From contig CAZIBS010000001.1 of the NCBI GenBank assembly GCA_964537405.1, positions 2,035-60,548 on the forward strand: a stretch of 58,514 nt of DNA. The letters run 5' to 3'. The stretch comes from an uncultured Thermoanaerobaculia bacterium (GTDB lineage: Bacteria > Acidobacteriota > UBA4820 > DSQY01). The position numbers were made by a program, and so were the translations under genes. Below the pieces are notes generated by a model. That model ran no database searches. It was not told where the DNA came from and saw only the letters and a list, made by a program, of their open reading frames with translations. Shown piece by piece: positions 35,882-50,885 of the stretch (position 1 is its first letter; every line of letters begins with the position of its first letter).

Positions 35882-37312
35882 ATGGCAGCAGACAGACGCG
35901 TGAATCTGGACTGGATCACCATAAAATACAAAGACCTTTATACGCTAATCGGCATCGTTGTCTTGGTGCTGGGTGTCCTCGGCGGCGGATTTCTTCTATG
36001 GCGCTGGCACGCAAACCCCCAAACCCGGGCCGACAGGGCACTTAACCATGCCCAACGGGTACTGGACAGCTTGGACATTCCTTCCGTCGGCTCCAACGTC
36101 GGCGCGACACTGGCCCAGGCCAGGGTTGTTCTCTCTCGGGGACGCGAGGAGTACAGGTCCGGTAAATACAAAAAGGCTTTTTCCATTGCCAAGGACGTTC
36201 TGACCACGTTGAACGACGTCAGGAGCGATAGAAACAAAACGCAAAAGTACGCGGTTCTCGTGGACATTGAGGGATCGGTGGAAGTAAAGAAAACGGGGCA
36301 GCACCTCTTTTCCAATGCCAAGGATCAGATGGTCCTTGAAGATGGTGATGTCGTGCATACCGATCTGAGCAGTTACGCGCGCATTAAGTACCACAACGGC
36401 ATGGTACAGATCGTTATGCCCGACTCCCTCCTTATGATCCAGACGATGACGGCGTCGCGAAGCGGAATCAACAAGATCAAGGTAGCGTCGATCCAGGGGG
36501 GCGTCGAAACACGGACGCCCGACACGATGACCAGCAGGGACGAGATGGTTATCAACACGAAGACTACAACCATCCGGCCGGCCCCCGCTTCAAGGGTGGC
36601 CGTTGCACAAACCAAAACGGGAGAGACAAAAATCGCCGCGCTTTCGGGCTCGGCGGAGGTCGAAGCGGACGGCCAGACAGAGCGCATCAAAGCCGGGCCT
36701 TCGGGCGCCTCCATCGTTAGTTCGGCAACCGGACTGGGGCCGATCAAGGCTCTCCTTCCGCCCCCCAAGGTTCTGTATCCCGAAGACCAACAGATAATCC
36801 GGGTGAACGACCCGATCCACTATACCCTGGCCTTCAAATGGCAGCCTTCCGCCGGGAAGAAAACTAAGTTCGAGATCTCGGCGAGAGCACTCTTCTCAAA
36901 GCTCCTTGCTCCCGACCGGATTATACAGGGCAATTCCATAACGGTGGACGGGCTTCCGGCCGGCAGCTACTACTGGAGGCTAAGAGCCGCCGGCAGCGAG
37001 ACGGAGACCTACTGGTCGCCGATTCACCGCTTCCGCTTGCTCCAGGTTTATCAGCGGCCGCGGATAAAGAGGAATCTTAAACTCACGGTCGTAGCTACAC
37101 CGATCGGGGACGGAGTGATACTTCAGGGAAAGACCGATCCTGGAGTTTCCGTATCGGTCAACGACATTGGAATACCGGTGAACACCGATGGCTCCTTCAG
37201 CAAGATATTTCTTTTCTCCGATGTTGGAATCCAAACCGTTCAGGTCAGGGCTTTCGACGAGGAAGGAAACCAGAAGGTCTGGAAAAGACAGTTTCAATCC
37301 GTCTCTTACTGA
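35882..37312 (+). CDS. Membrane-anchored FecR-domain protein with C-terminal Ig/FN3-like domains
   Basis: N-terminal TM helix; GSVEVKK...LEDGDVVHT...ARIKY..G (FecR-like); GSYYWRLRA; GKTDPGVSVSVN. Confidence 0.6.
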   Translation: MAADRRVNLDWITIKYKDLYTLIGIVVLVLGVLGGGFLLWRWHANPQTRADRALNHAQRVLDSLDIPSVGSNVGATLAQARVVLSRGREEYRSGKYKKAFSIAKDVLTTLNDVRSDRNKTQKYAVLVDIEGSVEVKKTGQHLFSNAKDQMVLEDGDVVHTDLSSYARIKYHNGMVQIVMPDSLLMIQTMTASRSGINKIKVASIQGGVETRTPDTMTSRDEMVINTKTTTIRPAPASRVAVAQTKTGETKIAALSGSAEVEADGQTERIKAGPSGASIVSSATGLGPIKALLPPPKVLYPEDQQIIRVNDPIHYTLAFKWQPSAGKKTKFEISARALFSKLLAPDRIIQGNSITVDGLPAGSYYWRLRAAGSETETYWSPIHRFRLLQVYQRPRIKRNLKLTVVATPIGDGVILQGKTDPGVSVSVNDIGIPVNTDGSFSKIFLFSDVGIQTVQVRAFDEEGNQKVWKRQFQSVSY

Positions 37313-37322
37313 GCCGGGACAG

Positions 37323-38390
37323 ATGACCGATAAGAGTTCCTATAGGAAGAAATACGAGAGCCTTGCAAAGGCGTTCCGGTTGAAGTCCCAACGCCTCCGC
37401 TTTCTCTCCGAGGTCGTGCGGACCGCGAACTCTTTGCTCGAACCGGAGGCGGTTATCTCCTACATCATGGAGCGGATCCAGCTACTGGTATACTCCGAGG
37501 CGTGGAGCCTGCTGCTTCTGGATGAAAACGGGAAGTTCCTCGTTTTTACAAAGGCCCTGGGGGTAAACGCCGATGCCCTAAAGGGCAAGAAGCTCGGGCT
37601 TGGAGAAGGCATAGCCGGCCGCGTGGGCGCCACCGGACGCCCCATGATGGTCAACAACGTCAGGGCAAGCTCCTACTTCAACCAGGAGTTTGACAATATC
37701 TCCGGCTTCGTAACCCGATCAATCCTTTGCGTTCCTCTTCGGAGCCGTGGAAAGACGCTGGGCGTTATTGAAGTGATCAACAAATCGGATAAAGGAGATT
37801 TTTCGGAAGAGGACCTCGACACGGTGACCCTCTTCGCGGAACCGGTGGCGGTGGCTCTCGAAAACGCTTACCTCTTTCAACGCGTCCGCCGGATGACGCT
37901 GGTAGACGATCTCACCAAGCTCTACAACTCTCGCTATCTACACCAGGCCCTGGAGATAGAAATTACAAGGGGGCGAAGGTATAACTACCCCGTCGCCGTT
38001 ATCTTCATGGACCTGGATAGCTTCAAACAGGTCAATGACCGCTTCGGCCACCTGGTAGGCAGCGAGACCTTAAAGGTCGTAGGCAGCCTGCTCAAAGACG
38101 TGGTTCGCAACGTGGATATTATAGCCCGCTACGGTGGAGACGAGTTTACCCTCATCCTGCCGAATACGGATTCCTCCGGGGCTCTTCTCGTAGCTGGGCG
38201 GCTACTTCGGGAAATAGTCGACCACGACTACGGTGAATCTCCCGGCTATCCATTCAGCCTCTCCGCAAGCTTCGGCATTGCCTCCTTTCCGGACCACGGC
38301 GACAACCCCGAAGCATTGATCCAAAAGGCGGACCAGGCCATGTACCGGGTCAAGGAATCCACTAAAAACGATTGCGCCATCTTCGCTTAG
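37323..38390 (+). CDS. GAF-GGDEF diguanylate cyclase
   Basis: GAF (GEGIAG, SILCVPL, GVIEVIN); DLDSFKQVNDRFGH; RNVD I-site; RYGGDEF. Confidence 0.92.
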   Translation: MTDKSSYRKKYESLAKAFRLKSQRLRFLSEVVRTANSLLEPEAVISYIMERIQLLVYSEAWSLLLLDENGKFLVFTKALGVNADALKGKKLGLGEGIAGRVGATGRPMMVNNVRASSYFNQEFDNISGFVTRSILCVPLRSRGKTLGVIEVINKSDKGDFSEEDLDTVTLFAEPVAVALENAYLFQRVRRMTLVDDLTKLYNSRYLHQALEIEITRGRRYNYPVAVIFMDLDSFKQVNDRFGHLVGSETLKVVGSLLKDVVRNVDIIARYGGDEFTLILPNTDSSGALLVAGRLLREIVDHDYGESPGYPFSLSASFGIASFPDHGDNPEALIQKADQAMYRVKESTKNDCAIFA

Positions 38391-38399
38391 GAGTTCTGT

Positions 38400-39431
38400 A
38401 TGTCTTTCAGCTTCCGCTCTCCCTTTTCTTTTCTCTCCAACGATCTTGCAATAGACCTGGGAACCGCCTATACGCTGGTTTTTATCAAAGGCAAGGGCAT
38501 CGTCCTGCGAGAGCCTTCCATCGTGGCGCTCAACCAAAAGACCGGCAAGATAGAGGCTGTTGGAAACGAGGCCAAGGAGATGCTTGGTAGGACTCCAGGG
38601 AATATTAAGGCCATCCGGCCGATGAAAGACGGTGTTATAGCCGACTTCGAACAGACCGAACGCATGCTGGACTACTTCATCAAGAAGGCCCACAATCGGA
38701 AGTGGGTGGTCAGGCCCAGGATCGTGATCTGCATTCCCAGCCAGATAACCCAGGTTGAAAAGAGAGCCGTCAGGGATTCGGCTTACAGGGCAAAGGCTTC
38801 CTACGTAGCGATGATTGAAGAACCGATGGCGGCGGCAGTAGGAGCAGGCATGCCTATCACGGAGCCCACGGGAAACATTATCGTGGATATCGGCGGAGGA
38901 ACTACGGATGTCGCCGTTATTTCAATGGCCGGTATTGTATACTCGCGCACCGTCAGGATCGCTGGAAACGAGATGGACGAAGCCATCATTCAGTTCATCA
39001 AGAAGAAGTACAGCCTTTTGATCGGGGAAAGGTTCGCTGAAGAGGTCAAGATACGGCTGGGTTCCGCCTATCCGATGAAGGAAGAAGAAACGATGGATGT
39101 CAAAGGACGCGACCTGATCGACGGAATCCCCAAGACCCTCGCCATTTCCTCCGAAGAGATCCGCGAGGCTCTCTCCGAGACGGTCTCTGTAATCATTGAC
39201 GCGGTCAAACAGGCCCTAGAACAGACTCCACCTGAACTTGCCGCCGATATCGTGGACCGCGGTATCGTCATGACGGGAGGTGGTTCACTGCTGAAGAACC
39301 TTGACAAGCGGCTCCGGGAGGAAACAGGCCTTCCGGTACTTATCGCGGACGATCCCCTTTCTTCGGTAGTTCTCGGAGCGGGGGCAATGCTCGATGACTT
39401 TGCACTTCTGAAGAGGGTTGCCGTGGAGTAG
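38400..39431 (+). CDS. mreB: Rod shape-determining protein MreB
   Basis: AIDLGTA, RPMKDGVIADF, DIGGGTTD, TGGGSLL. Confidence 0.97.
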   Translation: MSFSFRSPFSFLSNDLAIDLGTAYTLVFIKGKGIVLREPSIVALNQKTGKIEAVGNEAKEMLGRTPGNIKAIRPMKDGVIADFEQTERMLDYFIKKAHNRKWVVRPRIVICIPSQITQVEKRAVRDSAYRAKASYVAMIEEPMAAAVGAGMPITEPTGNIIVDIGGGTTDVAVISMAGIVYSRTVRIAGNEMDEAIIQFIKKKYSLLIGERFAEEVKIRLGSAYPMKEEETMDVKGRDLIDGIPKTLAISSEEIREALSETVSVIIDAVKQALEQTPPELAADIVDRGIVMTGGGSLLKNLDKRLREETGLPVLIADDPLSSVVLGAGAMLDDFALLKRVAVE

Positions 39432-40246
39432 TGATGACTCCAAGAACTCTTATCCAACGTCCCGGGATTCTGCTTCTCTTCCTGGTATCCGCCTACCTTG
39501 TGGGACTTACCATCCAGGTTCACCGGGGAGGAAGAACCGTTCTCGGTAACGTGACAATGACGGTTTTCAGCCCCCTTCTTGAAACCTTCAACGGCGCCTC
39601 AAGATTCACGAGAGAAGGACTGGACGCCTATTTTTGGCAGAGAGACGCGGCGGAAAGGGCGGAAAAGCTGGAGGTTGACAACCTGATTCTCAAAACCCGG
39701 CTCCAGAGGCGTTTGTTCCTGGAAGGAGAAAACAACCGGCTGAGAAGACTCCTCCACGCGCCGAGGCCGGAATCCATGGCAGCCATTCCCGGCCGCGCCT
39801 TCACGCGCTTCGGATCCTCGTTTGCCAAGTATCTTATCGTATCGGTGAACTCCTCCAGCCCCATTCCGCTGAAGAGCCCGGTTATCACCGACGCCGGTGT
39901 TGTCGGGCGGGTGGTTGGCCACGTGGGAAGCTCCTACAAAGTCCTCCTTCTTACCAATCCAACCAGTGCAATAGGGGTTGTTTCCCGTCGTACCGGAGTT
40001 CGCGGAGTTGCCGTGGGAGACGGAGACCACATGGTAATCAAGTGGGTTTCGACGCGGGCGGACGTGAAGGTGGGCGACCTCTTTGAAACATCCGGAGAGG
40101 ACGGCGTCTTTCCCGCGGGAATCGCCGTGTGCTCGGCAACATCGGTTTCCAACGGAGGCAAGTATTTCAAGGTAATCACCGCAAATCCGCGGTGCCGCGT
40201 GGACAAACTGGGATGGGTTCTTTTCCTGGTGAAGCACGATGGCTAG
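39431..40246 (+). CDS. mreC: Rod shape-determining protein MreC
   Basis: TM helix, ENNRLRRLL, GVVGRV, TSGEDGVFPAG; position after mreB. Confidence 0.9.
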   Translation: MMTPRTLIQRPGILLLFLVSAYLVGLTIQVHRGGRTVLGNVTMTVFSPLLETFNGASRFTREGLDAYFWQRDAAERAEKLEVDNLILKTRLQRRLFLEGENNRLRRLLHAPRPESMAAIPGRAFTRFGSSFAKYLIVSVNSSSPIPLKSPVITDAGVVGRVVGHVGSSYKVLLLTNPTSAIGVVSRRTGVRGVAVGDGDHMVIKWVSTRADVKVGDLFETSGEDGVFPAGIAVCSATSVSNGGKYFKVITANPRCRVDKLGWVLFLVKHDG

Positions 40247-40721
40247 GAAGGTTATTGCGATTCTGGTTCTGTTCCTCACCGCTACGGTGATCCAGGTGCT
40301 ACTCCCCATTCTCCCCGGGGGACTGTCGTTCGCAAATCCTTTTCTCGCACTCCTCGTCGTGCTGGCTCTCAGGCAGGGAACGTTGGCGGGAGTCTTATGG
40401 GGTGCCTCTCTTGGCGCCGTCAGCGATACTTTCGCGATGCCCTACCTGGGTTTTCACGGATTGGCCTTCTCCATAGCGGGTTACTTGCTGGGCTGGGCCG
40501 GAAGCCGGTTCCTGTTGGAGGGTTTTCTCCCCCCGCTTATCTTCTCTTGTGCCGCTTTCTTTCTGGATACCTTGGTGGTCGGTGTCCTCTACGCGATGTT
40601 GAAGCTTGAGCTTCCGTCGCCATTTCTTTACCCGCTACTGGCCGGAGGGGTGCTTACGGTCGTAACGGCGCTTGGTCTCGAAGCGCTCTACCAGAGGATC
40701 TACCCAAAGGACCTCAGATGA
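40239..40721 (+). CDS. mreD: Rod shape-determining protein MreD
   Basis: Hydrophobic 160-aa protein between mreC and mrdA. Confidence 0.8.
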   Translation: MARKVIAILVLFLTATVIQVLLPILPGGLSFANPFLALLVVLALRQGTLAGVLWGASLGAVSDTFAMPYLGFHGLAFSIAGYLLGWAGSRFLLEGFLPPLIFSCAAFFLDTLVVGVLYAMLKLELPSPFLYPLLAGGVLTVVTALGLEALYQRIYPKDLR

Positions 40722-42583
40722 GTTCCACGCCGTCCACGGAGTTCGAACGCAAGCTAAAGTTCTTGTCATTTATTCTATGGGCCATCTTTCTCGTTTTCAG
40801 TGTCAGGCTCTTTTACCTTCAAGTGATTCAAGGTCGGTACTACGAGCTTTTGAGCGAGAACAACTACTCAAGGTCCGTAGTCATCAGGAGTCCGCGCGGA
40901 GACCTGTTGGACGACAGGGGTAGGGTCCTGGCCAGGAATCGCGTATCCTTCGCGCTGGTTCTCAACACGGCCGGAGGGAAGCTCACCGGTAAACTGGCGG
41001 CAATAAAACGGGTTCTCAACATGGATTTCTCTCCGCGCGGGATCCAGGTGGCATCAAAGCGCAACGCGGTTCCGAATCTCACCGTAATCGCGCGAGACGT
41101 GCCGGTACAGACGCTGGAGAAGGTCGAGGCGAACCAGGAGGAACTTCCTTTTCTTCGCATAGAGATGGAACTCCGGAGGGAGTATCCCTTCGGCGAGCTG
41201 GCCAGCCACGTCCTTGGTTACGTAGGGTTGATCTCCCGCCGCGAGGCTCAAAAGATTCCGGCGGAGGAGAGAGATCCCTTTACCGAAGTCGGCAAGTCCG
41301 GTGTGGAGAAGATGGCCAACGCCATACTCTCCGGAAGGAATGGCTTGCGAACGATACAGGTGGACAGCCACGGCAGGGAGGTAAGCGACCCGAGATTGGT
41401 GCTGCCCGGGGTAAGAAAGCTCCGCAAGCCGGTTCCGGGAAAGGATATTTCACTTACCTTGGATGCGGGTCTTCAAGCCGTTTTGGAGAAAGCCTTCGGG
41501 GAAGAAGCGGGCTCGGCGGTCTTTATGAACCCGCAGACCGGCGCCATTCTCGCGTGGGTCTCCCTTCCGAACTTCGACCCGAATCTCTTTTCATCCGGCC
41601 TCAAACCTGCCCAGTGGAAGTCCATAATGGACGATCCGAAACACCCGCTTCTGAATCGTCCCATCCAGGGAATCTATCCGCCCGGTTCCGCCTTCAAGCC
41701 CTTGGTGGCTCTGGCGGGACTTGAGGAAGGACTTCTCAGCGCCGGCACCACCTTCTTCTGTCCGGGTTACTGGATTTTCGGCGGACGCGTCTGGCACTGC
41801 TGGACCGTGCATGGAAAGGTAAATCTCATTGTAGCGCTCCAGAACTCCTGCAACGTTTTCTTCTACCACGCTGCCAACCTTGTCGGCATAGAGAACCTGG
41901 ACAAGTGGGGCGCCCTCATGGGATTCGGAGAAAAAACGGGGGTAGGGCTGCCTGGAGAGCGAAGCGGTACCCTTCCAAGCCCGGCGTGGAAACGAGCAAG
42001 GAAACTCGGGAATTGGGTGCCGGGCGACACGCTTCCCGTCGGAATAGGACAGGGCTACCTTACGGTTACTCCCCTACAGTTGCTCGATTTCTATGCCGCG
42101 CTCGCCTCCGGCGGAAAACGCTATCGACCCAGCTTCGTCAAGCAAAAACCGGAACTCATTGCCTCCGTGAAGCTGTCTCCCGAGGCCCTTGCCGTCGTGA
42201 AAGAAGGGCTCTGGCGCGTTGTAAACGCCGGCGGGACCGGTGTAGCGTGTGCCATTCCCGGGCTCGGAGTCTGCGCAAAGACCGGTACGGCGCAGGTTGT
42301 AAAGGCGAGCGCGGGCCGAAACACCATGTCGCTCCCAAAGAAGGAAAGGGATCACGCGTGGTTCGCCGGTTTTGCTCCGCGGGACAACGCCGCCGTGGCC
42401 TTTGTCGTCATGGTTGAACACGGTGGACACGGAGGAGGATTAGCCGCCAGGATTGCGCGCAAGGGCCTGGAGTATCTCTATTTCGGCCGCGCGCCCGGAG
42501 GCCTCCCAAAGGGACTGTCGCTGCCCGGTAAGGATTCAGGGATGCTAAGTTTTCCCCCGGCCGGGAAGGCGCCGCGAAGATGA
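40718..42583 (+). CDS. mrdA: Penicillin-binding protein 2
   Basis: PGSAFK (SxxK), SCN, KTGT, DHAWF. Confidence 0.95.
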   Translation: MSSTPSTEFERKLKFLSFILWAIFLVFSVRLFYLQVIQGRYYELLSENNYSRSVVIRSPRGDLLDDRGRVLARNRVSFALVLNTAGGKLTGKLAAIKRVLNMDFSPRGIQVASKRNAVPNLTVIARDVPVQTLEKVEANQEELPFLRIEMELRREYPFGELASHVLGYVGLISRREAQKIPAEERDPFTEVGKSGVEKMANAILSGRNGLRTIQVDSHGREVSDPRLVLPGVRKLRKPVPGKDISLTLDAGLQAVLEKAFGEEAGSAVFMNPQTGAILAWVSLPNFDPNLFSSGLKPAQWKSIMDDPKHPLLNRPIQGIYPPGSAFKPLVALAGLEEGLLSAGTTFFCPGYWIFGGRVWHCWTVHGKVNLIVALQNSCNVFFYHAANLVGIENLDKWGALMGFGEKTGVGLPGERSGTLPSPAWKRARKLGNWVPGDTLPVGIGQGYLTVTPLQLLDFYAALASGGKRYRPSFVKQKPELIASVKLSPEALAVVKEGLWRVVNAGGTGVACAIPGLGVCAKTGTAQVVKASAGRNTMSLPKKERDHAWFAGFAPRDNAAVAFVVMVEHGGHGGGLAARIARKGLEYLYFGRAPGGLPKGLSLPGKDSGMLSFPPAGKAPRR

Positions 42584-42604
42584 CCAGGAAACGGATGGGA
42601 AGCG

Positions 42605-43714
42605 ATGAAAGATGAACTGAAGAACCTGTGGAGTGCGACAGACCGCGTAGCCACCCTGTTGGTATTCCTGCTTGTGGGCGCCGGGCTGGTGATGATCCGG
42701 TCGGCGACAATTGGAACGCGCTTCGCTCCTCTTGCTACGAAACAGGTTGTGTGGGCGGGGGTCGGCGCGGTCGCCTTCGTCGCGGCTTTCGTTGTTCCCT
42801 ACGAGACGTGGATCGAATACGCTTACATTATATACGGATGCTCCATAGCTTCCCTCGTCGCCGTTTTCCTCATAGGCCACTCGGTTGCGGGTTCGCGTTC
42901 CTGGATTACCATGGGTTCTATTGGCTTCCAACCCTCCGAATTCGCCAAGGTGGCTTGTATACTTGCGGGCGCGGCTTATCTCAAGGGGCTCTCCGGCAAA
43001 CGCGCCGGAGCGAAGGAGGCTTTCATAGTGTCCATGTTGGTGGGCCTGCCAGCCGCGTTGACGTTTCTGCAACCCGACTTCGGAACCGCAACAACCTTTC
43101 TTCCCATCGCCATCGCCGGTTTTTACCTCAGCGATCTGCCCCTCTCCAGGCTGCTGAAGTGGAGCGCTATTGCTTTTATTGTCGTGGTTGTGCTGTTCAT
43201 TATCGGCTGGTTCACATTCTTCAAAGTGTACCAGAAGGAGCGCCTTATAACCTTCGTCAATCCCTCAAGCGATGCACGCGGCGCAGGATACCAGGTAAAG
43301 CAGGCGGAAATAGCGGTGGGGTCGGGAAAGCTCACCGGCAAGGGTTTGTACTCGGGAAGCCAGAACAGGCTCAACTTCCTTCCGGCTCCCCATACTGATT
43401 TCATATTCGGGGTTCTCGCGGAGGAGACCGGGTTTGTCGGGAGCATCGCTGTTCTGGGGGCATTCCTATTCCTCCTATCGCGCTTTCTGGCCGCCTCCAG
43501 GGTAGCGCGTGATCTTGAGGGGCGTTTCATTGCCATAGCACTCTTCTCCCTTGTTCTATACCACGTTATTGTCAATATCGGCATGGTCATCGGGCTTCTT
43601 CCGACCACCGGGATACCCTTGCCCTTCCTCTCCTACGGCGGCTCTTTTCTCGTCTCGATGTGCCTGTTGGCGGGCCTGGCGGGCAACGTATACGCGAGGA
43701 GGTTTGTACAATGA
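42605..43714 (+). CDS. rodA: SEDS glycosyltransferase RodA
   Basis: FQPSEFAK, QPDFGT, HTDFIF, GIPLPFLSYGGS. Confidence 0.95.
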   Translation: MKDELKNLWSATDRVATLLVFLLVGAGLVMIRSATIGTRFAPLATKQVVWAGVGAVAFVAAFVVPYETWIEYAYIIYGCSIASLVAVFLIGHSVAGSRSWITMGSIGFQPSEFAKVACILAGAAYLKGLSGKRAGAKEAFIVSMLVGLPAALTFLQPDFGTATTFLPIAIAGFYLSDLPLSRLLKWSAIAFIVVVVLFIIGWFTFFKVYQKERLITFVNPSSDARGAGYQVKQAEIAVGSGKLTGKGLYSGSQNRLNFLPAPHTDFIFGVLAEETGFVGSIAVLGAFLFLLSRFLAASRVARDLEGRFIAIALFSLVLYHVIVNIGMVIGLLPTTGIPLPFLSYGGSFLVSMCLLAGLAGNVYARRFVQ

Positions 43715-44727
43715 ACGCACGGTACTCCAGGCAGGCTCTCCTGCCATGGATAGGGGAAGATGGCCAGAAGCGCATCGAAGCCTCCGGTGTGGCGATTGTC
43801 GGTCTCGGTGCACTTGGTTCCATCTGCGCCGAGTTCCTGGCCAGGGCCGGCACCGCTCGAATGGCGATCGTGGACAGGGATTTGGTCGAAGAGAGCAACC
43901 TTCAGCGGCAACTTCTCTATACCGAGGAGGACCGGCGCGCCCGTCTTCCAAAGGCCGTGGCGGCCGAACGCAGGCTTCTGAAGGTAAGACCTGACCTGAA
44001 AATCGAAGTGCTTAACGAGGACCTTAGCGCCGAATCGGTTCTCCACCTGGTGGAGAGTTACGACGTGGTGCTGGACGGAACGGACAACTTCGAAACGCGT
44101 TACCTTATCAATGACGCCGCCGTCTCCAGGAAAAAACCGTGGGTATACGCCGGGGCCGTTTCAAGCTACGGAAGCGTCATGGTGATCAGGCCGGGGGACA
44201 GCCCCTGCCTGCGGTGTGTTTTTCCAACGCCGCCCGAAGCCGGCTCGACTCCAACCTGTGCAACCGCCGGGATCCTCGGCCCGGCCGCGGGCGCCATAGC
44301 CTCCATTGAGGCGGGAGAAGCCATTAAGTTGCTTGCCGGAAGGGAAGACCTCTGCCTACCCGGGCTCTTCACCCTCGACCTTGGAGCCATGACACTGGCC
44401 AGGGTTAGAATTCCGCGTGATCCCAATTGTTCCTGTTGCACGGATCATGACTTTGAGTTCCTTGATGAAAGAAAGGGCACCAGGATGCAGCGTCTCTGCG
44501 GTAGCGACGCCATCCTCCTCCTTGCGCCGAGGGGAACCACGCTGGACCTTCCATTCGTAGCGAAGCGCCTTGAGGCTTACGCAGCGGTGTACGTGAACTC
44601 CCACCTTATCCAGACGCAATGGGATGGGCACCCCGTAACCCTCTACAAAGACGGACGCGCATTGATCCGCGGAATCTCAGCTCCGGCCCACGCCCACGCC
44701 TTGTACGCCCGCTATCTCGGCACCTAA
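43711..44727 (+). CDS. ThiF/MoeB-family adenylyltransferase
   Basis: RYSRQ, GLGALG, DRDLVEESNLQRQ, DNFETR, PCLRC; ATG at 43711 overlaps the rodA stop. Confidence 0.92.
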   Translation: MNARYSRQALLPWIGEDGQKRIEASGVAIVGLGALGSICAEFLARAGTARMAIVDRDLVEESNLQRQLLYTEEDRRARLPKAVAAERRLLKVRPDLKIEVLNEDLSAESVLHLVESYDVVLDGTDNFETRYLINDAAVSRKKPWVYAGAVSSYGSVMVIRPGDSPCLRCVFPTPPEAGSTPTCATAGILGPAAGAIASIEAGEAIKLLAGREDLCLPGLFTLDLGAMTLARVRIPRDPNCSCCTDHDFEFLDERKGTRMQRLCGSDAILLLAPRGTTLDLPFVAKRLEAYAAVYVNSHLIQTQWDGHPVTLYKDGRALIRGISAPAHAHALYARYLGT

Positions 44728-44857: not shown

Positions 44858-46246
44858 CTAAGCCCTCTCCGCCACCCCCGGTCCCCGGTTGGATGGCGGG
44901 TCCCGGACTATCTCCTCCTTGATCCCTCCCACGGCCTTGACCATGTGGGGGAAGAGAAAGGAGGTGGAGCATAGCCTGCCGGCCATGAAGGCGTAGGCGG
45001 CAGCCGTTACGCCCACCATGTGGAAGAGCCAGATTCCGGAAGAGAGCATCACGGCGACCCCGGCTACTTCGAGACCCGTCCCCCATGTGATGGGAGCAGT
45101 CTTGCGAGCGCTCACGAGCATGGCCTGTTCGAAGGAAAACAGGACGGAGAGCGCCGGCATGAGGGTGAGAATGCGCACCGGAACCAAGGCTAAATGGGTA
45201 AGCGCAGGCGAAAGTCCCGATATCCCTTCGAACCAAAAAACCGCGAGCGGACTCCAGCCGATAATCGCCAGACCGGCCGCCGCACAGACTCCCAGTATTG
45301 CAGCGAAACGTTTTAAAGCAGGGTAACCGCGTCCTCCTTCGCCAAGAAGGGCTATGCCAACCTCCTGGTAGGCGAGTCCCATGCTCCTGAAAATAAACAC
45401 CAGGGAGTTGACAACCGGAAGTACGGCGAGCGACTCAATTGGCAGGCGACTCTGGCCCAGACAAAAGGTGACGAGCGGATTGATGGCCAGGATGAGCATG
45501 GAGGTAAGCGCCAGCGGATAGTAGAAGGTGGAAATGTAGCGGTACGTTAATTCGGTGTCGGCGGCGTTTTTTAAGCTCTCCGAAGATTGCGTCTCTCCCA
45601 CAATATCCCGGATGCTGCGACCAGCCATGACGCGGCTGGCCAGCGCCTCCATCGTCACTCCCACGGAAAGGGCAGCGGCGCCCACAACCGCTCCAGGCAT
45701 GCCCCCCTTTAAGAATAAAATCAGGCCGGTCGAAGCCATGAATAGCAGCCTGACTACCGTTCCCAGTGCGACAAGGCGGGTCTTCCCCTTTCGAATCAAA
45801 ATGCCGTGGTTGAATCTCCGGTAACCGATTGCCGCCGGCCATGGTAAGAGTAGAAGGGAGGCTAAATGGGTGAGCTGCGCCACGTTGGAGGGCAGTTTCA
45901 TGAACCCTTCGACGATGGGAAAGAAGACGCGAGGCGCCAGAAAAATTATCCACAGCAAGGTTATTGCGGCATTCAGCAGGAAGGTGAAGTTGCGCAGCTT
46001 GAAGTAGGCGACCCGGTTTTTTACGAGGGCTGTCGAGGCGCTCATTATCATGATTATGGGAGACTCAAGAATCAGTGCGAAGGCGAAGGCGACGCCGAAG
46101 GCCGCCAGGTTTATGATCGGATGGTCGAGCCTGGCTATTATGGCCGCGATGTAAGGACCTTCCGCCGCCATCATAAACCACGTGGCCGCCAGCGGCGACC
46201 AAAAATGGAATATCCTTTTAACCGTTAAATCTTTCTTATACGCCAC
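44858..46246 (-). CDS. MATE/MOP-superfamily-like polytopic membrane protein
   Basis: About 12 hydrophobic segments in two similar halves (FWSPLAATW / FYYPLALTS). Confidence 0.6.
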   Translation of the reverse strand: MAYKKDLTVKRIFHFWSPLAATWFMMAAEGPYIAAIIARLDHPIINLAAFGVAFAFALILESPIIMIMSASTALVKNRVAYFKLRNFTFLLNAAITLLWIIFLAPRVFFPIVEGFMKLPSNVAQLTHLASLLLLPWPAAIGYRRFNHGILIRKGKTRLVALGTVVRLLFMASTGLILFLKGGMPGAVVGAAALSVGVTMEALASRVMAGRSIRDIVGETQSSESLKNAADTELTYRYISTFYYPLALTSMLILAINPLVTFCLGQSRLPIESLAVLPVVNSLVFIFRSMGLAYQEVGIALLGEGGRGYPALKRFAAILGVCAAAGLAIIGWSPLAVFWFEGISGLSPALTHLALVPVRILTLMPALSVLFSFEQAMLVSARKTAPITWGTGLEVAGVAVMLSSGIWLFHMVGVTAAAYAFMAGRLCSTSFLFPHMVKAVGGIKEEIVRDPPSNRGPGVAERA

Positions 46247-46352
46247 TTCTTCAACACCTTTTCAAATCATCCGCGGGGCGATCCCCGCGCTGCTCCATCC
46301 GATGGTATCATTGTTGGGTTGGTTTGCCCGCGCAGGCAAAGGGAGGCAAAAC

Positions 46353-47987
46353 ATGGAGAAAACCATCACCGTCCTCTTTATAGATAACATACTGACCGGC
46401 TATGAAGGAAAGTTGGAAGGGTACTTCGCTCAAACACAACCCCATTGGAAGCTGAAGTTCGCCGGTACAATGAAAGAGGCTTCATCGGCCCTTTCCGGTG
46501 AGGCGCCCGACGCGGTGGTCCTGGATGTTGCGTTGACGCCGGGAGGCGGCGAGGGGCTGAAACTCCTCACTCAGCTACGGCGCCACATGAGCAACACCCC
46601 GGTTATCATGCTCGCCGAGAGCCATGACGACGAAGCGGTGCGGGATGCCTTTACTTCCGAGACCATGACGGACGAAATGACGGTCAGGGAACTCGAGCCC
46701 GACGGGTTTATCTTCGCAGACGAGATAATCTCCAGTGGACGCCTGGAATTGCTGGAGTGGAAGCTGGTGCATGGTCTCTACACCTACGGCCGTGTTGTCA
46801 ACAAAACCGGCATCTTGATAACCCATGGTACGGATACGATGGCTTGGTGTCTTTGCTACCTCCGCTACGCCCTGAAAAATCTCCGGGCCAACGTGGCCGT
46901 GACGGGCTCGCAGGTGCCGCTGGAGAGCTACTTCTCCTCCTCAGACGCCCTAGGCAACCTCAGGACCGCCGTCCACCTCCTTAACCGCCTGCGGCCGGCC
47001 CATCTTTTCGCCGTCTTCAACAATGGAAAGAGGGTTTTCTCGGGAAGGCTGACGAAGTACCGTAAGTGGGACATGGACGCCTTTGAAGGCCGGGTGGCTG
47101 CGAGCGCCGGCGCCGAAGGCTTGCTCTCCCTCAGAAAGGACTGGGTTTTCATACCGTATCCCGATCAGCGTCTCAATGACCTTCACCTGATAAGAACCGG
47201 GGGAACCATAGAATCCCAGCGGGATACTGAGGGCGGCGCCCTCAAACCCACCGGCGACTTCGTATGGCGGTACGTTAACGGCCCTCTCTCCTCCTTCTTC
47301 TTCAATTCCCACCGTCACGACCTTTTTGCCCTCGACTCCTCAAATATGTCCTTCGAGCAGTGGGAAATCATCGCGCGCGAGGTGGAAAATATAGGTGTCG
47401 CCAAAGCCGATACCAACTTTGATCTATCCGTGAAGCCTGTCTACGCCAACCCCGCATTCACGACCGACGACTACAGGAGGCAGTTCAGGGCCTGCGGCAA
47501 TGGCGCGGTGTTCGCGGCCTTCGGCGGAGGAAACGCAAACATCCTGGAAAACTCGAACCGCACCGTGCTGCCCGCCCTCACTGAGGCTGTAGAGCAGGGC
47601 GCCTTCGTCGCGGTAACCTCCCAGGTCCCTCTGGAGTCCTACGACGCCGAGTACGATACGGGGCTAAGCCTGCTCAAGGCCGGGGGAGTTCCCTGCGGCG
47701 ATCTCCCCCTGCCCGACGCTCAAGTCAAGCTAAGTTACCTCCTTGGCCACGAAGAGGAAATCAACCGTGCGAGCGCTGAAAGCGGTTTGGATCGCATGGT
47801 CCTGCTTACCGCTTCCTTCCTGGCCGGTGTTTCCATGCGCAAGGCCGTCAGCCTCGGAAACTTCGAACGCCTCATGGCCGAACGCTCCCAACCCATCAAA
47901 ATCCTGCCCGACGATGTTTTCGTCGCCAAGCCTTTTACCGCCGGTCTCAAAGTCATCGTAGAGGTTTGCTCTACCTGCATGTTGTAG
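46353..47987 (+). CDS. Atypical receiver domain fused to an internally permuted L-asparaginase (type I/GatD-like fold)
   Basis: REC-like N-terminus (VLFIDN, PDAVVLDV, TPVIML), then THGTDTM and TGSQ, then IRTGGTI and DSSNM, then FGGGN, TSQ, VKLSYLLG; GGGAGG RBS before ATG 46353. Confidence 0.8.
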   Translation: MEKTITVLFIDNILTGYEGKLEGYFAQTQPHWKLKFAGTMKEASSALSGEAPDAVVLDVALTPGGGEGLKLLTQLRRHMSNTPVIMLAESHDDEAVRDAFTSETMTDEMTVRELEPDGFIFADEIISSGRLELLEWKLVHGLYTYGRVVNKTGILITHGTDTMAWCLCYLRYALKNLRANVAVTGSQVPLESYFSSSDALGNLRTAVHLLNRLRPAHLFAVFNNGKRVFSGRLTKYRKWDMDAFEGRVAASAGAEGLLSLRKDWVFIPYPDQRLNDLHLIRTGGTIESQRDTEGGALKPTGDFVWRYVNGPLSSFFFNSHRHDLFALDSSNMSFEQWEIIAREVENIGVAKADTNFDLSVKPVYANPAFTTDDYRRQFRACGNGAVFAAFGGGNANILENSNRTVLPALTEAVEQGAFVAVTSQVPLESYDAEYDTGLSLLKAGGVPCGDLPLPDAQVKLSYLLGHEEEINRASAESGLDRMVLLTASFLAGVSMRKAVSLGNFERLMAERSQPIKILPDDVFVAKPFTAGLKVIVEVCSTCML

Positions 47988-48007
47988 AACCCGTTGCGTG
48001 ACCCGAT

Positions 48008-48036
48008 TTGTGCAACGGGCTCCAGAGGGTTAAAAT
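48008..48036 (+). promoter_or_regulatory. Putative sigma-70 promoter
   Basis: TTGTGC-17 nt-TAAAAT. Confidence 0.35.
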
Positions 48037-50243: not shown

Positions 50244-50885
50244 GTGGGCAAGGAAGTCCCTCCGGAAAAGTACCAAGTGAAGTGCATTCACTGCGGACGC
50301 TTATTCGACGCCTGCCAAAGCCCGTGGTGCGAGTGCATCACCGAAAATCCCACCCTTGTTTGTCCACACTGTTCCAACTGCTTTTGCAACGCTGGAGAGG
50401 AGGCAATCAATGCCTTCTGGGAAAAAGCTCCACCGGGGCTCTGGCGTAGGCGGGTAAGGAAGCACTCCAAAGCGATGCGCGTCGCCCCGCCGATGGAGGA
50501 GGGCAATCCCTTGAGGCGCCCGTTGGTTCTCGTGGCCGAAGACAACGACGATACGCGGCTCGTAGCCTTCAGGGTTCTTGAACAACTGGGCTACGGGGTG
50601 CTGCTGGCCCGGGACGGAATGGAGGCCTTTCTCCTGACGGAGCTGCACAATCCGGACCTGATTCTCACCGACCAGGTCATGCCCCACATGGACGGGCGTA
50701 CTTTGAGCAAACTCGTCAAGGGGAACCCAAGGCTGGCCAAGATTCCCGTAATTATCATGACCGGAGTTTACAAGAGGGAACGGGAGCGCATTGAACTCCT
50801 CAGAGAGAGCGGAGCGGACGACTACCTCTTAAAGCCCATCAGCTACGATAAACTGGGCGATGTGATCGCCGGATGGCTTGGATGA
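50244..50885 (+). CDS. Response regulator: Cys-rich N-terminal domain plus a C-terminal receiver
   Basis: CIHC...C...WCEC...CPHCSNCFC, then VLVAEDN, PDLILTDQVMP, IMTG, LLKP. Confidence 0.8.
   Translation: MGKEVPPEKYQVKCIHCGRLFDACQSPWCECITENPTLVCPHCSNCFCNAGEEAINAFWEKAPPGLWRRRVRKHSKAMRVAPPMEEGNPLRRPLVLVAEDNDDTRLVAFRVLEQLGYGVLLARDGMEAFLLTELHNPDLILTDQVMPHMDGRTLSKLVKGNPRLAKIPVIIMTGVYKRERERIELLRESGADDYLLKPISYDKLGDVIAGWLG

Follow-up and report, generated by a model that had tools for sequence, protein, structure and literature searches.

A putative class 1 L-asparaginase with a permuted N-terminal domain and an attached receiver in an uncultured Thermoanaerobaculia bacterium

The gene and the order of its segments

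The stretch of DNA analyzed here, referred to as the window, comprises 58,514 nucleotides of contig CAZIBS010000001.1 (positions 2,035 to 60,548 of the forward strand) from the assembly GCA_964537405.1 of an uncultured Thermoanaerobaculia bacterium. At 46353-47987 on the plus strand, it carries a gene for a protein of 544 amino acids in which a receiver domain is followed by an asparaginase-like unit with the two halves of its N-terminal domain (N-domain) in exchanged order. A first-pass annotation, made from the letters of the DNA alone, had described the gene as one uninterrupted frame, which agrees with the open reading frame listing. A strong ribosome-binding site, the Shine-Dalgarno-like GGGAGG, can be read at 46336..46341 (+; coordinates ±2 nt), about 7 nt 5' of the ATG at 46353. 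Because of this box, and because full-length homologues share the start residue of the protein beginning at this ATG, the latter is regarded as the start codon and the upstream GTG at 46182 is not.

The CheY-like receiver domain spans residues 1-125 (46353..46727), is recognized by the Pfam family PF00072, by alignments to NtrC and DevR and by family columns, and has D11, N12, D58, A88, and A122 at its signature positions. It is joined to the catalytic unit by a linker (residues 126-147; 46728..46793), which is 32-50% identical to close homologues and probably helical. The catalytic unit starts with segment B (residues 148-246; 46794..47090), which corresponds to the latter half of the N-domain in canonical asparaginases. 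Segment B contains THGTDT with T160 and D161, the TGSQ motif, and K235 and was placed by Pfam, by PDB alignments and by positions 73-168 of a profile of canonical enzymes built for this analysis. A new connector (residues 247-276; 47091..47180), the length of which is conserved across the permuted family, leads from the old end of the N-domain to its old N-terminal strand. This is followed by segment A (residues 277-346; 47181..47390), the first half of the canonical N-domain with TGGT including the putative nucleophile T285, a flexible loop, DSSN with S329, and the following helix; it was placed by positions 5-72 of the same profile, PDB, and Pfam. The asparaginase/glutaminase C-terminal domain (C-domain; residues 351-472; 47403..47768) starts about four residues after segment A and was assigned by PF17763, profile positions 197-316, and PDB alignments. 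The protein ends with a family-specific tail (residues 473-544 and stop codon; 47769..47987), which reaches about 50 residues past the end of canonical type I enzymes. Residues F489, G492, D521, and F528 of this tail are nearly invariant in an alignment of 90 family members, and members without a receiver likewise run about 45-65 residues beyond the C-domain match.

All motifs listed in the first-pass annotation were found within 6 nt of the positions it had given. VVLD lies at 46515, THGTDTM at 46821 (the previously noted 46824 is the His codon), TGSQ at 46902, IRTGGTI at 47190 (47196 is its first Thr), DSSNM at 47334, FGGGN at 47520, TSQ at 47616, and KLSYLLG at 47727.

The order of the segments is evident from several models. 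When compared with the profile built from 30 canonical asparaginases of about 330 amino acids, residues 128-246 match profile positions 55-168 (independent E-value, i-E, 2.4e-25), residues 277-346 match positions 5-72 (i-E 1.6e-12), and residues 351-472 match positions 197-316 (i-E 1.9e-17). The Pfam model of the asparaginase N-domain (PF00710) aligns in two stretches with 85.9 bits at a gathering score of 22.5, the best being residues 151-246 on profile positions 77-171, and the model of the C-domain (Asparaginase_C, PF17763) matches residues 361-471 with 49.1 bits at a gathering score of 34.6. In a search of the genome, the match to PF00710 positions 2-71 likewise lay downstream of that to positions 77-171, both in one frame. 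The structure of GatD (1zq1) also aligns out of order: residues 274-345 of the protein correspond to residues 91-162 of the chain, from TGGT to DSS, and residues 152-211 to residues 170-227, which include HGTDT. Instead of the canonical sequence of TGGT, DSS, HGTDT, interdomain linker, and C-domain, the protein thus consists of the HGTDT half, the TGGT/DSS half, and the C-domain, and these out-of-order matches exceed chance by far. The breakpoint is located between the helix after DSS and the strand leading into HGTDT. As the DSS helix enters the C-domain after only about four residues, the usual interdomain linker is gone.

The circular permutation within the N-domain that had been proposed in the first-pass annotation is borne out by these results: Pfam, PDB, and the canonical profile all match out of order, including the split Asparaginase matches that it had anticipated, and the family with this arrangement is monophyletic (see below). 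Its statement that both catalytic Thr motifs are kept holds as well, both being present and invariant in 90 sequences.

Homologues, origin and architectures

In a first search, 112 of 120 proteins had HGTDT before TGGT; one fungal protein showed the normal order and seven lacked one of the motifs by the expression used. Among 256 retrieved proteins, 218 contained both motifs. The motif order to which the first-pass annotation had drawn attention recurs in 148 of these 218, and the spacing from HGTDT to TGGT is 117-129 residues in all but one of the 148 (147/148). By profile criteria, the B-A-C arrangement is present in 140 of the 256 proteins, and all ten diverse members examined closely (10/10) give the same three profile stretches. 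An exhaustive search yielded 51 clusters (50% identity) at E ≤ 1e-30, and a scan of genome contigs revealed at least six permuted loci, with Aminicenantes and Bacteroidaceae among the named loci listed. According to their source names, the matches come from Acidobacteriota, Thermoanaerobaculaceae, WOR-3, Delongbacteria, Rikenellaceae, and Heimdall-, Gerd- and other Asgard archaea. In databases, members of the family are labelled 'L-asparaginase/Glu-tRNA(Gln) amidotransferase subunit D', 'asparaginase domain-containing protein' or 'hypothetical'. Several short proteins of about 200-250 amino acids (P0134, P0137, P0162, P0168, P0152) match either the C-domain and tail only or the B-A part only; these may be fragments from contig ends or natural split forms.

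Permuted and canonical sequences are separated by a single branch with an SH-aLRT support of 99 in a tree of 76 permuted and 52 canonical rows. For the alignment, each segment was fitted as a separate block to the canonical profile and a 75% identity filter was applied; the tree was calculated with IQ-TREE (LG+G4, 302 columns) in quick search mode. Caveats are this quick mode, the use of the canonical profile as the template of the alignment, and the representation of canonical enzymes solely by sequences that the search returned. The tree indicates that the permutation arose once. The simplest route would be that the N-domain was duplicated internally and the outer halves were then lost, and no intermediates of this route are seen: arrangements such as A-B-A-B-C or extra A or B stretches occurred in none of the 256 proteins (0/256), even at relaxed thresholds. 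In P0001, P0004, and P0008, but not in more distant members, the match to the canonical profile extends back to residue 128 (profile positions 55-72). Residues 128-147, which resemble the canonical helix after DSS, were considered as a relic of the duplication; this was rejected because the stretch is found in three close homologues only and stand-alone forms do not have it.

The permuted core occurs in several architectures, and the presence of an N-terminal extension requires seven to eight changes within the permuted clade. Receiver and core together make up proteins of about 540 amino acids, and forms with a longer N-terminus ahead of receiver and core reach 720-810 amino acids. The core alone, with about 390 amino acids, begins 9-15 residues before HGTDT. 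In a further group, the core is followed by a C-terminal domain of about 400 amino acids resembling class-I glutamine amidotransferases (GATases), with the consensus motifs CLGHQ and QFHPE and a match to PF00117 in 7 of 25 proteins at E ≤ 0.01. These forms of about 800 amino acids (P0074-P0094, P0109, P0113, P0116, P0126-P0128, P0141-P0155; alignment A2), many of which are of Asgard origin by source name, unite two distinct domains of the amidohydrolase type in a single chain, the second being divergent; for their C-terminal half, no sequence match was found in PDB. P0115 and P0118 carry an NAD synthase domain (PF02540, residues 22-211) ahead of the permuted core, a fusion that may represent a new kind of glutamine-dependent NAD synthetase.

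The genome from which the window derives (2.26 Mb, 97.7% complete) contains no further PF00710 gene and no gene of the Asparaginase_2 or Glutaminase families. Within its order, 25 of 29 genomes, including this one, have a permuted gene, and two (G015, G022) have a canonical, contiguous PF00710 gene; the four genomes of the order that have no permuted gene are 64-94% complete. In 12 sampled genomes from other families of the phylum, there was no permuted gene, and eight had canonical PF00710 genes. As the genomes are relatives of each other and only a sample, these counts describe a pattern and are not a statistical test. The pattern suggests that the permuted enzyme could be the house asparaginase of the order.

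The homologues in the 25 genomes of the order are syntenically independent and have no internal stops. In G022, one of the two genomes of the order with an additional canonical asparaginase, the match (G022:C2:2429-3950; protein P0065) is distributed over two reading frames. The break falls at residue 342/343, where the TGGT/DSS half adjoins the C-domain; possible causes are a frameshift, a pseudogene, and a naturally split gene. G011 encodes two full-length receiver-permuted-asparaginase copies on different contigs, which are 57% and 50% identical to the protein described here.

Active site, receiver and proposed function

The class 1 catalytic residues are all present in the permuted protein: T285 in TGGT, T160 and D161 in HGTDT, K235, and S329 in DSS, their equivalence being given by PDB and profile alignments. 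We take T285 to be the nucleophile, T160, D161, and K235 to form the triad and S329 to bind the substrate. In 90 aligned members, which are 29-70% identical to the protein of the window, T157-H-G-T-D-T162, K235, T282-G-G-T285, and D328-S329 are invariant, and TGGTI, DSSN, and HGTDT are identical to the consensus of the canonical type-I-like set. A nucleophilic Thr, a Thr-Asp-Lys triad and a substrate-binding Ser are described for class 1 enzymes in a review (PMC8256714). In close homologues, the core is 74-80% identical to that of the window's protein, whereas the receiver is 32-54% identical; therefore, selection sits on the enzyme.

Taken together, the gene can be assigned a probability of about 0.68 of encoding a cytoplasmic, catalytically competent class 1 (type-I-like) L-asparaginase/glutaminase with a naturally circularly permuted N-domain. 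Segments A and B would refold into the usual α/β N-domain, so that T285 and the triad of T160, D161, and K235 face one pocket. The usual intimate dimer would form, with the C-domain of the partner completing the active site, and ammonia would be released by hydrolysis of L-Asn and/or L-Gln at the side-chain amide. The chemistry is probably ordinary. Since this is the sole class 1 asparaginase in its own genome and in most of its order, a housekeeping role is probable.

The receiver domain is far less well preserved. The Pfam model Response_reg (PF00072) covers residues 33-101 with a marginal 31.3 bits at a cut-off of 30.2, and many solved receivers were matched weakly. D58, presumably the phospho-acceptor, aligns to the acceptor Asp of NtrC and DevR at the end of β3, and A88 to their conserved Thr at the end of β4, where relatives have T. 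The acidic pair after β1 reads D11-N12, while it is DD in nine relatives. A122, a position placed by family alignment alone, falls into a column that, among 66 receiver-bearing members, is occupied by K in 25 cases and by R in 20; in the nine relatives it is always K (9/9). The signature is thus D-N-D-A-A, as compared to DDDTK in all nine relatives checked (9/9), three of which belong to the same genus; because all of them read DDDTK, a standard phosphorylatable receiver is the likely ancestral state. Across the 66 receiver-bearing members, 14 have DDDTK, five DDDSK, and eight DPASR, in which the acceptor is lost; the acceptor column holds Asp in 38 and the Thr column S or T in 37. These alignments indicate that receivers have decayed repeatedly across lineages and that D12, T88, and K122 were lost recently in this species. 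As these three residues are replaced by N, A, and A, the balance tips toward a decayed, phosphorylation-independent pseudo-receiver in this copy, which would be kept as a structural or oligomerization module. In the relatives with DDDTK, phosphorylation would gate activity, in the simplest case via the dimerization needed for the composite active site.

The first-pass annotation had described the receiver as retaining the acceptor Asp and lacking the usual Thr and Lys, which is correct, D58 being present and A88 and A122 standing in place of Thr and Lys. The signal-gated architecture it had suggested is plausible for the family, with DDDTK in nine relatives, and doubtful for this protein, in which three of the five switch residues are lost. 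If the family is phospho-gated, this protein has probably lost the property.

Several observations weigh against the assignment as a competent asparaginase/glutaminase with an ancestral receiver switch. None of the NCBIfam models reaches its cut-off: the type I asparaginase models TIGR00519 and NF006998 score 97.5 at a cut-off of 260.5 and 68.9 at 376, respectively, and the GatD models NF003217 and TIGR02153 stay below their equivalog cut-offs with 91.5 at 310 and 85.9 at 324. Whether Asn, Gln or another compound is the substrate is not readable from the sequence. A loop Tyr resembling that of type II enzymes is not evident in TGGTIESQRDTEGGALKPTGDF, although the consensus of the 30 canonical sequences likewise does not have it. 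The acceptor Asp is retained, so residual phosphorylation may be possible in this copy. No histidine kinase was found beside the gene in the window or among the 10 neighbour genes scanned in four loci with intact receivers; this is weak evidence, orphan regulators being common. Gene neighbourhoods are not conserved and are uninformative for function. None of the runs listed that contain the gene is an RNA run, which is neutral with respect to expression.

Of the alternatives, a role as an ammonia donor comes closest, although it is unlikely. According to this explanation, the protein would not be a free-standing asparaginase; it would be a GatD-like glutaminase module that passes ammonia to a partner synthetase, with the supply controlled by the receiver. 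GatD is among the best named relatives, some members are fused to NAD synthase (as in P0115, with PF02540 at 22-211 and then the permuted core), and the host genome has an NAD_synthase match in a frame of 280 amino acids on another contig. Against this stand the absence of a conserved partner gene in the loci of 12 relatives and in three stand-alone loci, the position of the NadE fusions as a small derived branch inside the stand-alone clade, and the scores of the GatD equivalog models far under cut-off.

Slightly less probable still is an active amidohydrolase acting on another amide. This could be Asn/Gln that is modified or part of a peptide, a lipid, in the manner of the relatives of mammalian 60-kDa lysophospholipase, or the precursor of a small signal; the new topology and the tail would reshape the pocket. 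The family-specific tail of about 50 residues together with the new connector would agree with this, as would the low scores with all curated asparaginase models and the long forms, in which the core is joined to a second hydrolase domain of the class-I GATase-like type. Signal-generating roles have been proposed for some asparaginase-family enzymes in a preprint (10.64898/2026.10.19.760177), which does not deal with the permuted family. The substrate-contacting TGGTI, DSSN, and HGTDT, however, equal the type I consensus letter for letter, and genomes with the permuted gene mostly have no canonical asparaginase, which fits an ordinary job.

A pseudoenzyme, in which the permuted domain binds Asn/Gln as a non-catalytic sensor or scaffold, appears improbable. 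The unusual topology might fail to rebuild the active site, and the adjoining receiver has decayed in several lineages; yet no catalytic residue varies in 90 sequences, the most distant of which have 29% identity, whereas the receiver drifts. A dead enzyme would be expected to show the opposite.

The gene region was also compared with four sequencing runs from four studies, the gene stretch being present in runs labelled hydrothermal vent metagenome. One contig of run X1 covers 45900-47452 with 0 differences and includes the receiver, HGTDT, connector, TGGT, and DSS; the overlapping X4 and X5 contigs tile the same junctions. No joints, insertions or deletions were found at the junctions in any of the four runs. 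Because the best-matching run may be the window's own sample, three other studies provide the independent support. The misassembly named in the first-pass annotation as a possible refutation is excluded, as contigs of four studies cover the junctions without a joint; the many independent homologues with the permuted order are more decisive against an artefact than these contigs. That the order results from misassembly, a chimera or a pseudogene is thus a negligible prospect, for which no support was found apart from the origin of the window from a metagenome-type assembly of 160 contigs, and against which stand the junctions tiled in other studies, the intact frame, and the syntenically independent homologues in 25 genomes of the order (with the match in G022 split into two frames).

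With regard to the genomic surroundings, the neighbours of the permuted gene vary between genera. The only recurrent families are two unrelated ones, a leucyl-tRNA synthetase and a protein with no Pfam match, which are shared by five closely related loci, and the stand-alone forms are found next to genes for a histidine phosphatase, an AAA ATPase, a GNAT protein, Fe-ADH, and TyrRS. A function based on an operon was considered and dropped because neighbours are not conserved between genera. Divergent from the asparaginase gene, the window encodes a multi-pass membrane protein of 462 amino acids with no Pfam match (44858-46246, minus strand). In G007 (L102), a homologue of this protein (55% identical) is encoded no more than about 3.4 kb from the asparaginase gene; there is none in the other loci examined. 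About 2.3 kb downstream of the asparaginase gene, a protein of 213 amino acids is encoded (50244-50885, +), which has a receiver domain at residues 95-207 (72 bits) after an N-terminus of about 90 amino acids with no assignment and precedes a KsgA-type rRNA dimethylase. Further upstream, a complete rod-shape cluster mreB-mreC-mreD-pbp2-rodA (38400-43714) is followed by a ThiF-family gene (43660-44727), and a GAF-GGDEF diguanylate cyclase is encoded just upstream of this cluster (37188-38390).

Directly 3' of the stop codon lies a hairpin-forming element of 35 nt (47988..48022, +) with an 8-bp stem (CCCGTTGC/GCAACGGG) and a fold of -19 kcal/mol (z -2.25). Four runs show loose ends at 47986 and 48022, where other contigs share just this stretch with differing flanks, and a second copy with 3 mismatches is present in the same genome on contig C4. 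The element may mark where the transcript ends, or it may be a small repeat, with or without a tie to the gene.

Comparison with known systems

The best sequence matches of the permuted protein are the type I asparaginases of thermophilic archaea (1wls from P. horikoshii, 4q0m from P. furiosus, 5ot0), with E from 1e-16 to 1e-14. Common to them and the permuted protein are TGGTI, DSSN, HGTDT, TGSQ, the Lys, and the two-domain composition of PF00710 and PF17763. The archaeal enzymes are cytoplasmic, and a signal peptide is not expected in the permuted protein either. In contrast to the latter, they run from TGGT via DSS to HGTDT in one N-domain, followed by the linker and the C-domain. The permuted protein differs further by the new connector of 30 residues, the link of about four residues in place of the interdomain linker, the extra tail of about 50 residues, and the N-terminal receiver.

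GatD of the archaeal GatDE amidotransferase (1zq1, 2d6f) resembles the permuted protein to about the same degree as type I enzymes do, and all three segments are matched. GatD uses the same fold as an ammonia donor and has an extra N-terminal domain. Unlike the permuted protein, it has the canonical order, its own N-terminal domain, which is not a receiver, and an obligatory partner, GatE; moreover, the present host is bacterial. AnsA (2p2d) and AnsB (3eca) from E. coli belong to the same superfamily and have the same catalytic residues, although neither is permuted or has a receiver, and AnsB was matched only weakly (E 0.088).

In class 1 enzymes, the N-domain carries all catalytic elements and the C-domain of the partner completes the active site in the intimate dimer, as stated in the review (PMC8256714). 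The same review reports that the N- and C-domains of the P. furiosus asparaginase PfAI, when expressed without the linker, assemble into an active enzyme (4nje, 5b5u, 5b74; PMC8256714). As the canonical linker is dispensable in split PfAI, its loss in the permuted protein is less worrying. The PfAI constructs differ in being engineered and cut between the domains; they do not represent a natural rearrangement inside the N-domain.

In a literature search that did not extend to supplements and subscription journals, neither a permuted class 1 asparaginase nor a receiver-asparaginase was found to have been described, and the already described family with this order that the first-pass annotation had considered did not come to light. 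The stem 'permut' is absent from the 2021 IUCrJ review (PMC8256714) and from the 2022 survey of bacterial asparaginases (PMC9500103). A 2026 preprint (10.64898/2026.10.19.760177) mentions asparaginase-family enzymes in conflict systems and proposes signal-generating roles for some of them; the permuted family and the permutation are not covered there.

A far-reaching interpretation, put forward here tentatively and with more doubt than confidence, is that the family is the first case in which the class 1 L-asparaginase fold has been circularly permuted in nature, and that it forms a fourth architectural type beside type I, type II, and GatD. Throughout one bacterial order, this type might have taken the place of the canonical enzyme, and as a module it might have reached Bacteroidota, Delongbacteria, WOR-3, and Asgard archaea. 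Ancestrally, it might have been a new response regulator, in which phosphorylation of the receiver turns the amidohydrolase on through the dimerization that builds the composite active site, so that two-component signalling would be tied directly to the release of ammonia from Asn or Gln. L-asparaginases of class 1 have received much study for their use in leukaemia, and their classification has been reviewed repeatedly. If true, the family would be a natural experiment on how the asparaginase fold assembles and how much connectivity matters, and it would offer a sequence-distant scaffold for enzyme engineering. With regard to annotation, the label 'asparaginase domain-containing protein' conceals a coherent family, and an order that has no canonical ansA need not thereby lack the activity.

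Response regulators with an N-terminal receiver and an enzymatic output domain are represented by CheB, PleD/WspR, and RpfG. The permuted protein resembles these in having its receiver N-terminal to an enzyme, and switching by phosphorylation is plausible in the members with DDDTK. If this interpretation is true, an amidohydrolase would join the output domains of response regulators, which would suggest direct control of ammonia release by two-component systems. The difference from CheB, PleD/WspR, and RpfG is that this species has other residues at three of the five signature positions of the receiver. The repeated decay of the receiver beside an invariant enzyme would make the family a clean case of a signalling module that is lost while its output is retained.

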